DNA of 64,000 nt from Escherichia coli (GTDB lineage Bacteria; Pseudomonadota; Gammaproteobacteria; Enterobacterales; Enterobacteriaceae), in NCBI RefSeq assembly GCF_003018255.1, contig NZ_CP027440.1; one strand, given 5' to 3'. Of this stretch, positions 49,501-52,500 are shown piece by piece (within the stretch, counting starts at the first letter, position 1; every line of letters begins with the position of its first letter). The position numbers were made by a program.

Positions 49501-52500
49501 CTGACTTGTAACAAAAATAAAGATAAAAATGAGAACGAGGATGTTGCCAGTGCTGAAAATATGAACTGGATGCAGGCATTGCGTTTTGTGGCTGCGAAAG
49601 GGCATCAGAAAGCGATTATTGTTTACCATGATACGTTGCAGACAGGAAAATATGACTCTGCGCTGAAATCAACAGTATGGTCCGACTATAAAAATGAAAA
49701 ACTCACTGACGCTATCTCCCTGCGCTACCTGGTACGTTTCACGCTGGTGGATGTGGCAACAGGTGAGTGGGCTACCTGGTCGCCGGTGAATTATGAATCG
49801 AGAGTAATTTTTCCGCCGGCTGGAATAACAAAAATGAGCAATAAAGAACTATCAAATGACCATGTTACGGAAGTGCAACTGTTTAATTTGAAACAAAAAA
49901 CATATGTATCGATGGTGAAAGACTTGGTGAGTCGATTCCAGTAATCGTTATTGTTATGCTGCCGCCTGTAGTTTAGGGCGGGCAGCAAACAGGAGCTGAG
50001 TATTTCTATAATGTAAATATGTTTTTTTATAAAATTATAATATATATTGCCAGTGAATTGCATGTGAGTTATTTTTTTAATTCTTCATAAATTAAAATGG
50101 TATCATCTGCAATGGAAAGAATTGCTATTATCTCTTCATCTTTTTTATATTTTTCTTTTAATGTTTTGTTTCTTTCTTTTAATGGGGTACATTCATTAAT
50201 AATATCATTTTTAGCTGTCATTGAGTCAGTTTCGATATCGAATGCTAAATCTACAAAGCAATAATCTACGTAGAACATAAATCTACGTATATCTTCTGGT
50301 ATGGCTGTGGAAAAATAACGGTATTGCGTGTAAGTGGTTTGATCATCGAATTCGTCTGATTGTACTGAATATGTAATTGTGGCCAGTATAAATAGTAATG
50401 TTAATTTTATAATAATCATTTGCTGGATATCTCATCTGGATTTTGAAAATCTGAAATGTAAGCATTGTTTAGTTGCATGGCTCTTATTTTGTTTAACTCA
50501 GTATAGCATGGATATAGTCGAGAGAATGCCAGACGTCCTACTCTGGCCCCCCAGGTTAGAGCAAAAGAGCATTGAGCAAATCTGTAACGTATAAATTCCC
50601 GATTAGAAGATTCTAGTCTTTTTAAAGAAATAACTGCTTCTTTTCTTATTGCTTCGTCCTCATCGTTATTCCATTTTTTAATTTTCTCTTTTATATTTAC
50701 TTCTGCTTTTTTAAGTGTAATAGTGCTCATAATAAATGAATTTTTAACACAATCAACAAATTCAAGTTCATCAACGCCACTACATTCTTTAGACATGGAA
50801 ATGTCAAATGCCAGACATTTTGTACATGAGAATGTAAGCAGTAGAATAATTGTTATTTTTCCCATTCTCATAACACTCTGTTTTTTGTGAGCAATGTATA
50901 AACGAACTGAAGTTTTATTGCATACTTGGGATCTCCACCACCATTATAATTCATCGCTACATTTTTTATTGTGATAGGTTTCCATCCAGTAATTATTACT
51001 TTCATGGATGCTTTTTGATAATATAAAATATCTCCCGGGTGTATTTTATCGAGATTTTTTCCAGGGTTGTTTTTCGTTAAGTTAGGTATGGTCGTTTTTC
51101 TCTCTTTTCTGATGTTGTCAGCCAAATCGCCTTTTTGGACGATGACGCTATATAGAGTTGAGTCATATTGATCGATAGTTGATTCTTCCTTTGTATTAGA
51201 AAGTTTCATCATTAAGTAAGTAATTGCTGCTTTGATATTCTCTTCTGGAGAGCCAGTTATTTGTTCTTTTGCCCAGTAATTTCTTTCTGGATCTTTTAAC
51301 CCATTGAATGCTTTGTTTCTCCATTGTGGTGGGGTAACAAGGGCTGCGGATTTTTCTCCAGAGATTAAAGCAGGCATCGCTTTATCTTTCCGAAAACGAC
51401 CAATTTGTAATGGATAACCATTCCACTGAGAAGTATTTGCCGCATCGTTTTCAGTCCAAAGCATGGCTTTTATTATATACCAATCCAACGGCTGAAAGTA
51501 TGGAGTGCTGGACAAATGAATGTTGATTTCATTAACAGATTTTAAAATTAATAAGTCATATTTATTCCATTCTTTATGATTGCTCACAAATGCCAACTCT
51601 CTTATTTTTTTCCATTTAAAAAAATCACTTTCATCTTCTGTTATTCTTGATGCGAAATCTTGCCTTAGTTGAAATGGGAATTTTTCATTAAATAACGTAC
51701 TGTCAGTGCTTGTATTTTTGCTTTCACTGTCTGATGTTGAAGAGTGTAAAATATTGTTAGCCATTATAATAATCCCAGATATTTTTAAAAAAGACGATCT
51801 TCCCATAAACTGTATGCACTAGTGCCAGCGGAACAATGCTCCCATATAATTGACTCATAACTGAAAGAAACTGACTCTTCGGGTTGAATGCTGTTATCAA
51901 CAACAATATGTGATATAGAGACATGAATGTCGCTTATCTTTGCTCCAGTTAATTTGATTTTATAGTACAGTTCATTAATTCCAAATTTATTTGTACGATA
52001 AAAGGAAAAGTCACATGTCAATAATTCATTGTCGCAAATTGCTTTGCCTAATAAGGGTGATGCTTTATCTATAGGTTTTTTTATTGTCAAATGATGATGG
52101 TTGACGTTTTGATCTCGATTTAATCCATGCATGAATTCATAAATCATAATTTGATCAATGTGTGCTGTTTGAGCTTTATTTCCAATGGATGGTTGTGATG
52201 AACAACCACTTGAAATGAGCCCTTGATTATCACCATTTAGTGTTAAATAAATTAAATTCGCCATTTAAAACTCCTTTGTATTCATGAATGTTATTGAAAT
52301 TCAATGTCTTTTTTTATCGTCGGTATCGTATTATTCTTCAGCAGCAGCCAGCGACTTAACACGCCGTCCATCCGCTCGTTAATCTGTTTTTCCAGCGCAT
52401 CTGTATTCTGCTTCTGCGCACGGGCATCCTGGTACTGCGTCAGCAGGGATTCCAGAGGTGTTTCCTGCCCCAGTCCCCGCTCCGCCTGCCAGATGACATT

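Follow-up and report, generated by a model that had tools for sequence, protein, structure and literature searches.

What role does a small secreted protein play when its gene lies at the cargo end of a type VI secretion system (T6SS) cluster, directly behind a gene for a candidate antibacterial effector? This question is raised by a stretch of 64,000 nucleotides from Escherichia coli (contig NZ_CP027440.1, assembly GCF_003018255.1), termed the window in the following, which contains an open reading frame (ORF) of 151 amino acids (50416..50871, minus strand) that a preliminary description had put forward as a secreted DUF1311/LprI-like protein and probable immunity determinant. Our analysis supports this proposal based on the lysozyme/lytic-transglycosylase fold and the LysM domain predicted for the upstream protein, the recurring order of effector and DUF1311 genes, and a counterpart pair in Salmonella Dublin (PMC8867033). 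We consider it very likely that the 151-residue protein acts as the cognate immunity protein for the effector whose gene lies directly upstream (298 amino acids; 50868..51764, minus strand). The pair itself is already known, as it was published in 2026 under the names Etse4/Etsi4, and the window gene is the Etsi4 ortholog.

The gene arrangement is that expected of an immunity gene: both genes lie on the same strand at the site of T6SS-2 that holds hcp and its cargo, and the ATG of the 151-residue ORF shares four nucleotides (ATGA) with the stop of the effector ORF, confirming the overlap noted previously. The predicted compartments also agree, with the effector assigned to the periplasm by its fold and the downstream protein by its Sec-type amino terminus. 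In enterohemorrhagic E. coli (EHEC), Etse4 directed by a pelB signal was toxic and co-expression of Etsi4, itself a DUF1311 protein, restored growth, so that relief of the toxicity of a periplasmic effector fragment is on record for an ortholog with 95% identity to the window protein (PMC12981562).

The 151-residue protein and its family

The ORF is real and uninterrupted; RefSeq places its start at the second methionine, yielding 149 amino acids, and already names the gene DUF1311/LprI. The amino terminus reads MRMGKITIILLLTFSCTKCLA|FD and comprises the basic residues R2 and K5, a hydrophobic core (I6–F14) with a mean Kyte–Doolittle value of 2.9, and small residues at positions −3 and −1 (C-L-A). 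As judged by inspection and hydropathy rather than by a dedicated predictor, it resembles a Sec signal peptide, in agreement with the earlier proposal. The ortholog of strain EDL933 carries a glycine in place of C19, which is still compatible with the −3 rule and indicates that the cysteines of the signal region are not conserved. A lipoprotein reading of the LTFSC segment (C16) is unlikely, as phenylalanine at −2 and threonine at −3 fit a lipobox poorly.

Cysteines occur at positions 16, 19, 30, 41, 101 and 122. The C-x11-C pair described previously is indeed found in the mature protein, formed by C30 and C41, but its spacing is C-x10-C, the original count being off by one. The FIRYRFAQC segment spans residues 93–101, as described. 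At its distal end the gene is again linked to its neighbor, as its stop and the start codon of the ORF at 50069..50419 share another ATGA.

The Pfam scan suggested in the preliminary description returned a single weak match to LprI/PF07007 (E = 0.0074, 17.1 bits), which lies below usual significance and extends over residues 41–134, corresponding to model positions 17–106 of 106 and thus to near-full coverage. Among the NCBIfam and PADLOC models only a weak match to NCBIfam UmoC was obtained (E = 4.8e-4), far below its cut-off. Whereas a word-indexed search for the immunity protein returned only near-identical E. coli sequences, an exhaustive search of representatives yielded 73 remote homologs at E ≤ 1e-3, and 47 single-domain homologs were aligned for conservation analysis. 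Although the protein's own match to PF07007 is weak, 44 of these 47 sequences match the family at E ≤ 1e-3; with the limit set to E ≤ 0.1 every one of them does, the best value being 1.2e-13. Five residues do not vary in this alignment (C41, W67, C101, C122 and N127), and at least 90% of the sequences have C30. A direct search of solved structures with the immunity protein gave no meaningful match; the family profile matched a single PDB sequence, the DUF1311 structure 3gi7, over its whole length and with all four cysteines aligned. This structure, PP0307 of Pseudomonas putida, is the only solved DUF1311 structure we found and shares 15% identity with the window protein, which matches its fold of three long helices and has a Gly-rich loop (residues 105–115) joining helices 2 and 3. 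Judged from these profiles, the 151-residue protein truly belongs to DUF1311, although it has diverged, in line with the family assignment made before. An MliC domain (PF09864) was not found in the Pfam scan of the protein, which is too short to hold a second domain. In some DUF1311 homologs a single secreted polypeptide is made up of the domain repeated in tandem, two or three times, as exemplified by P0007 (437 amino acids), P0014 (411 amino acids) and P0011 (324 amino acids).

The upstream effector and its pairing with DUF1311 genes

Read mechanically, the effector ORF extends to 51806 (312 amino acids) and thereby reaches into hcp, whereas the database form of 298 amino acids begins with MANNILH, 20 nucleotides past the hcp stop. 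Only the start of the 298-residue form is consistent with the position published for the nonsense mutation in EHEC (nucleotides 220–222). Within the window the ORF (50868–51806) is uninterrupted, but in genomes identical over 49000–52300 RefSeq splits it into a coding sequence of 198 amino acids and a 'pseudogene' fragment, probably following the example of O157:H7, whose gene is truly divided by a TAA stop. As the stop present at codon 74 in EDL933 is missing from the window, the window holds the intact ancestral effector form ('etse4ori'). The RefSeq annotation that splits this gene is thereby corrected. The antibacterial effector/immunity pair, which is disrupted in E. coli O157:H7, is intact in this strain and probably works. 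The cluster at 90% identity that contains the 298-residue effector (P0004) also includes many Hcp sequences of 159 amino acids, suggesting that a fused or read-through Hcp–effector ORF in some database entry bridges the two.

The effector sequence alone matched no Pfam family and gave no meaningful match among the sequences of solved structures, and neither NCBIfam nor PADLOC returned anything for it or for the 116-residue protein encoded downstream of the DUF1311 gene. A match to eIF2B-epsilon was discarded, as it reflects only the low-complexity acidic and serine-rich composition of the amino terminus. We therefore analyzed the effector as a family, using about 30 homologs from an iterated search. 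The alignment of these sequences shows W66, D70, W95, K99, M101, W103, E105, W114, G122 and D127 to be invariant, with E105 located in an MLWTE(S/N/V) motif, and conserves the segments YNGGGD and PLQIG. Residues 1–42 are disordered and are followed by a lysozyme/lytic-transglycosylase-like domain of alpha-helical catalytic fold, into which a LysM unit is inserted ahead of the carboxy-terminal YNGGGD helix. For this insert the evidence comes from several sides, as the family profile matches the LysM of solved structures with E = 8.7e-17 (LytE LysM repeats), Pfam LysM is matched by 13 of 33 homologs, and the structure model shows a beta-alpha-alpha-beta unit at about residues 205–250. Pfam SLT is reached by no family member at E ≤ 1e-3 and by three at E ≤ 0.1, and the tentative correspondence of the conserved segments to SLT-type motifs (E-S, GLMQ-like and AYNxG-like) is a reading by eye. 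We predict that the effector is an enzyme cleaving the glycan strands of peptidoglycan, either a lytic transglycosylase or a hydrolytic muramidase, with E105 of the MLWTE motif as the likely catalytic acid. A peptidoglycan-cleaving fold combined with a LysM domain also leads to the prediction that it acts in the periplasm. This fold-level evidence goes beyond the published description of the pair.

A plausible sequence of events can be outlined from these properties. The effector of about 298 residues, a cargo of T6SS-2, would presumably be carried by the adjacent Hcp and delivered into the periplasm of a rival, where it would bind peptidoglycan via its LysM insert and cut the glycan strands with its lysozyme/lytic-transglycosylase-like domain, the putative catalytic glutamate being E105. 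The immunity protein would be exported via the Sec pathway and fold in the periplasm as a DUF1311 three-helix domain, probably stabilized by two putative disulfides among C30, C41, C101 and C122. There it would neutralize incoming or self-delivered effector, most likely through direct binding and blockage of the substrate groove.

The distribution of the two genes is in agreement with such a partnership. Among the complete E. coli genomes surveyed (5,426), the 151-residue gene occurs in 363, with DNA identities of 96–100% and always together with the upstream gene, and both genes co-occur in all 363 effector-carrying genomes. The gene is not found in 93% of the complete genomes, and every genome with the whole gene also has the effector. 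On a Salmonella contig (L003), TssM, VasL and Hcp genes are followed by genes for an effector and a DUF1311 protein with 41% and 48% identity, respectively, and the order Hcp, effector, DUF1311 recurs there as well as in Citrobacter (L012). A scan with the effector profile, in which each species was represented by a single genome, yielded 32 loci, 11 of which have a DUF1311 gene starting within about 15 nucleotides of the effector end. Such loci are found in Citrobacter youngae, Cellvibrio, Aquabacterium, Massilia (four loci), Pseudoduganella, Rhodoferax and a metagenome-assembled genome of the Burkholderiaceae, and on the metagenome contig L009 a DUF1311 gene lies just downstream of a fragmented effector gene. 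Besides Salmonella, Citrobacter and L009, the pairing is seen in ten further species-level genomes. In a neighbor-joining tree of the effector cores, calculated without bootstrap, the DUF1311-paired effectors fall into an enterobacterial clade and a second clade that is mostly betaproteobacterial. That the pairing is kept well outside the enterobacteria likewise extends the published description. For the Salmonella Dublin counterpart, the 'LysM/LysMI' pair SED_RS06235/SED_RS06230 of pathogenicity island SPI-19 that was predicted and tested in 2022, a mutant lacking this effector/immunity module was outcompeted by the wild type (PMC8867033).

Several observations weigh against the assignment as the cognate immunity protein. 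The rescue reported in EHEC relied on co-expression from one plasmid and on a fragment of 198 amino acids starting with MLWTE, not on the intact 298-residue effector (PMC12981562); the size of this fragment is deduced from the quoted identity of 98.48%, equal to 195/198, together with the EDL933 locus. The competition effect in S. Dublin was small, amounting to 1.5-fold (PMC8867033). Binding and inhibition of the effector by the immunity protein are inferred for every member of the pair, and the DUF1311 domain itself is not known to inhibit a glycosidase, its label 'lysozyme inhibitor' going back to M. tuberculosis LprI, which carries an MliC domain in addition. ScwA, a DUF1311 protein of Salmonella, did not make cells resistant to lysozyme (PMC7933661). 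About two thirds of the distant effector homologs precede unrelated, mostly signal peptide-bearing proteins, indicating that the toxin fold has several immunity families and that DUF1311 is not its sole partner. Finally, the conserved third gene suggests that the module is perhaps not a simple two-gene pair.

As a separate observation, a metagenome-assembled Variovorax genome (L018, 4695–5637) encodes a distant effector homolog and, behind it in place of a DUF1311 protein, two paralogous proteins with signal peptides (161 and 146 amino acids) from tandem genes. They share the motif DAPCDG..Y.SWGR.C and are candidates for another family of immunity proteins against this toxin fold.

The family name raises the alternative that the 151-residue protein is mainly an inhibitor of host lysozymes (animal c-type or g-type) serving virulence or defence, its position next to an effector gene being incidental. 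PF07007 is named after LprI (Rv1541c), a lysozyme inhibitor of Mycobacterium tuberculosis, according to PMC4742756 as cited in PMC12135965, and such an additional role was also speculated upon in the EHEC study (PMC12981562). LprI resembles the window protein in its DUF1311 domain and in being located outside the cytoplasm, but it is a lipoprotein with an additional MliC domain, whereas the window protein has neither an MliC domain nor a good lipobox. The MliC domain is sufficient to account for lysozyme inhibition by LprI, and the LprI domain itself is not known to inhibit lysozyme (PMC7933661). The result for ScwA counts against a host-directed role as well, and host lysozyme would hardly explain either the translational coupling to the effector gene or the maintenance of the pair in Massilia, Cellvibrio and Aquabacterium, which are free-living bacteria of soil and water. 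We thus regard a function directed mainly at host lysozyme as very improbable.

The third gene and the genomic setting

The ORF following the DUF1311 gene (50069..50419, minus strand) encodes a protein of 116 amino acids with a signal peptide-like amino terminus and two conserved cysteines, which is predicted to be periplasmic. The ATGA overlap couples its translation to that of the immunity gene, and it constitutes the third gene of the module. Pfam, NCBIfam and PADLOC revealed no family match for it, and the possibility that it is a diverged DUF1311 protein was ruled out, as hhalign gave a probability of 0.3% and no Pfam family was detected. Homologs of 116–125 amino acids with 30–39% identity lie directly downstream of DUF1311 genes in the metagenome loci L007 (90–467 and 1390–1737) and L009 (1453–1827). 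The Citrobacter youngae locus L012 has the order effector, DUF1311, 116-residue type, DUF1311, 116-residue type, with the latter genes at 5199–5567 and 6219–6584. The pair thus occurs twice in tandem in L007 and L012; both genes of the second pair in L012 have diverged much further than those of the first pair. No gene of this type was detectable in the betaproteobacterial and Cellvibrio loci with an effector and a DUF1311 gene.

These observations allow for the alternative that the enterobacterial module is a three-gene unit in which the 116-residue protein is an obligate partner of the DUF1311 protein, either as a second immunity or accessory subunit or as the antidote to a second property of the intact effector. 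Immunity would then need both proteins together, forming a complex or covering two activities or states of the effector, and the DUF1311 protein alone would protect only partly against the intact effector. The ATGA overlaps joining all three genes, the recurrence of the third gene behind the DUF1311 gene in L007, L009 and L012 with its tandem pairs in L007 and L012, and the signal peptide-like amino termini of both proteins point in this direction. On the other hand, Etsi4 alone rescued the toxicity of Etse4 in BL21 (PMC12981562), the O157 copy of the 116-residue gene is altered at its carboxy terminus to 98 amino acids, and the betaproteobacterial and Cellvibrio pairs lack a detectable gene of this type. 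The alternating arrays could moreover be orphan immunity genes of two effectors, comparable to the hcp islands of Pantoea, for which orphan immunity genes with LprI domains were inferred (PMC9796082). Taking both sides into account, we consider an obligate two-protein immunity unlikely; if it were true, pairs of DUF1311 and 116-residue-type genes would have been inherited and duplicated as units. The 116-residue protein may provide additional immunity or serve as an accessory protein, or else it may be the product of an orphan immunity gene for another effector.

In a genome comparison three complete E. coli genomes matched the region 49000–52300 with 100% identity, and strain JNE23-011 aligns with window positions 37015–64000 at 99.7%. 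According to the annotation of this strain, an rRNA operon is followed by dkgB, yafC, yafD, mltD, gloB, yafS, rnhA, dnaQ and tRNA-Asp (aspV; 48740–48816), after which the lipoprotein gene yafT (49144–49944) is found on the plus strand, between tRNA-Asp and the cargo genes and opposite to them. Running toward yafT on the minus strand are, in the order of transcription, tssJ, tssK, dotU, tssH, vasI, tssA, tssM, a gene with a VasL domain and hcp. Beyond hcp the JNE23-011 annotation lists a 'hypothetical protein' whose gene is split, then a 'lysozyme inhibitor LprI family protein' and finally a further hypothetical protein. The cluster is the aspV-associated T6SS-2 of E. coli, positioned at tRNA-Asp, with the 151-residue gene at its cargo end.

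The cargo segment (49700–52400) lies between the T6SS-2 core and yafT/tRNA-Asp and comprises hcp (159 amino acids; 51785..52264, minus strand), immediately upstream of the effector gene, followed by the effector, immunity and 116-residue genes. Its GC content is 30–35%, compared to 50–58% in the T6SS core and the housekeeping flanks, which suggests a separately acquired cargo cassette carrying its own hcp. A scan of 49800–52500 for promoters and terminators gave counts no higher than in shuffled sequence and is uninformative on operon structure. With 49000–52300 as query, some part was matched in 4,222 of the 5,426 E. coli genomes and the effector and immunity genes in only 363, indicating that something in this region is far more widespread than the cargo; this part is probably yafT. 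The yafT gene also adjoins the module in the metagenome locus L009.

The VasL/TssA-like gene (52291–53730, minus strand) differs from EDL933 by one base within a run of A residues at about 52290–52310. Its product in the window ends with KKDIEFQ before hcp, whereas the EDL933 form extends about 25 amino acids into hcp, and RefSeq flags the gene as 'frameshifted' in the near-identical strain JNE23-011. As the Salmonella homolog likewise ends before hcp, the form found in the window may be the normal one.

Comparison with known systems

Dedicated immunity proteins against glycoside-hydrolase effectors of the T6SS are an established class, with Tsi3, Tgi2 and TsiV3 providing immunity to Tse3, Tge2 and VgrG3, respectively. 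The closest counterpart of the window pair is the EHEC Etse4/Etsi4 locus, which is likewise part of the T6SS-2 cluster at aspV and has the same gene order. EDL933 Etsi4 is identical to the window protein in 144 of 151 residues, the seven differences being G4R, C19G, V39I, V58A, K65Q, N69S and A104T, and the DNA of the EDL933 effector is 98.4% identical. The two loci differ in the state of their genes: the effector is intact with 298 amino acids in the window, as in O55:H7, whereas the ancestral gene is split in O157:H7 by a TTA>TAA mutation at codon 74 (PMC12981562), and the 116-residue gene is full length in the window but altered at its carboxy terminus in EDL933 (98 amino acids).

The S. 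Dublin pair resembles the window pair in its overall architecture, as an effector of about 290 amino acids with a LysM and, by HHpred, a transglycosylase-like domain precedes an LprI/PF07007 protein of about 146 amino acids with a Sec signal within a T6SS cluster. It is from another species and represents a diverged allele, and it is likened to the window pair by this architecture.

A different type of relative is ScwA of S. Typhimurium, which, like the window protein, is periplasmic and has a DUF1311 domain with conserved cysteines. ScwA is functionally linked to MltD, an enzyme whose SLT and LysM domains represent the domain combination of the window effector, and it raises the levels of MltD in a disulfide-dependent manner (PMC7933661). 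By analogy, the 151-residue protein could be a housekeeping modulator of an endogenous peptidoglycan enzyme such as MltD rather than an antidote, the more so as the effector shares the SLT-like and LysM architecture with MltD and mltD lies 5 kb away within the window. This reading is, however, even less probable than a host-directed one. The gene is missing from 93% of complete E. coli genomes, its whole-gene carriers all possess the effector, and it sits in the AT-rich T6SS cargo segment. ScwA is larger (275 amino acids), has an extra amino-terminal sequence, raises the level of an endogenous enzyme and is not encoded beside an effector. Furthermore, the ortholog of the window protein was reported to rescue effector toxicity (PMC12981562), as expected for an immunity protein. 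Considering the immunity protein and ScwA side by side, the DUF1311 domain may be a dedicated binder of enzymes combining SLT and LysM domains, which, if true, would link T6SS immunity, as in Etsi4–Etse4, with endogenous cell-wall control, as in ScwA–MltD.

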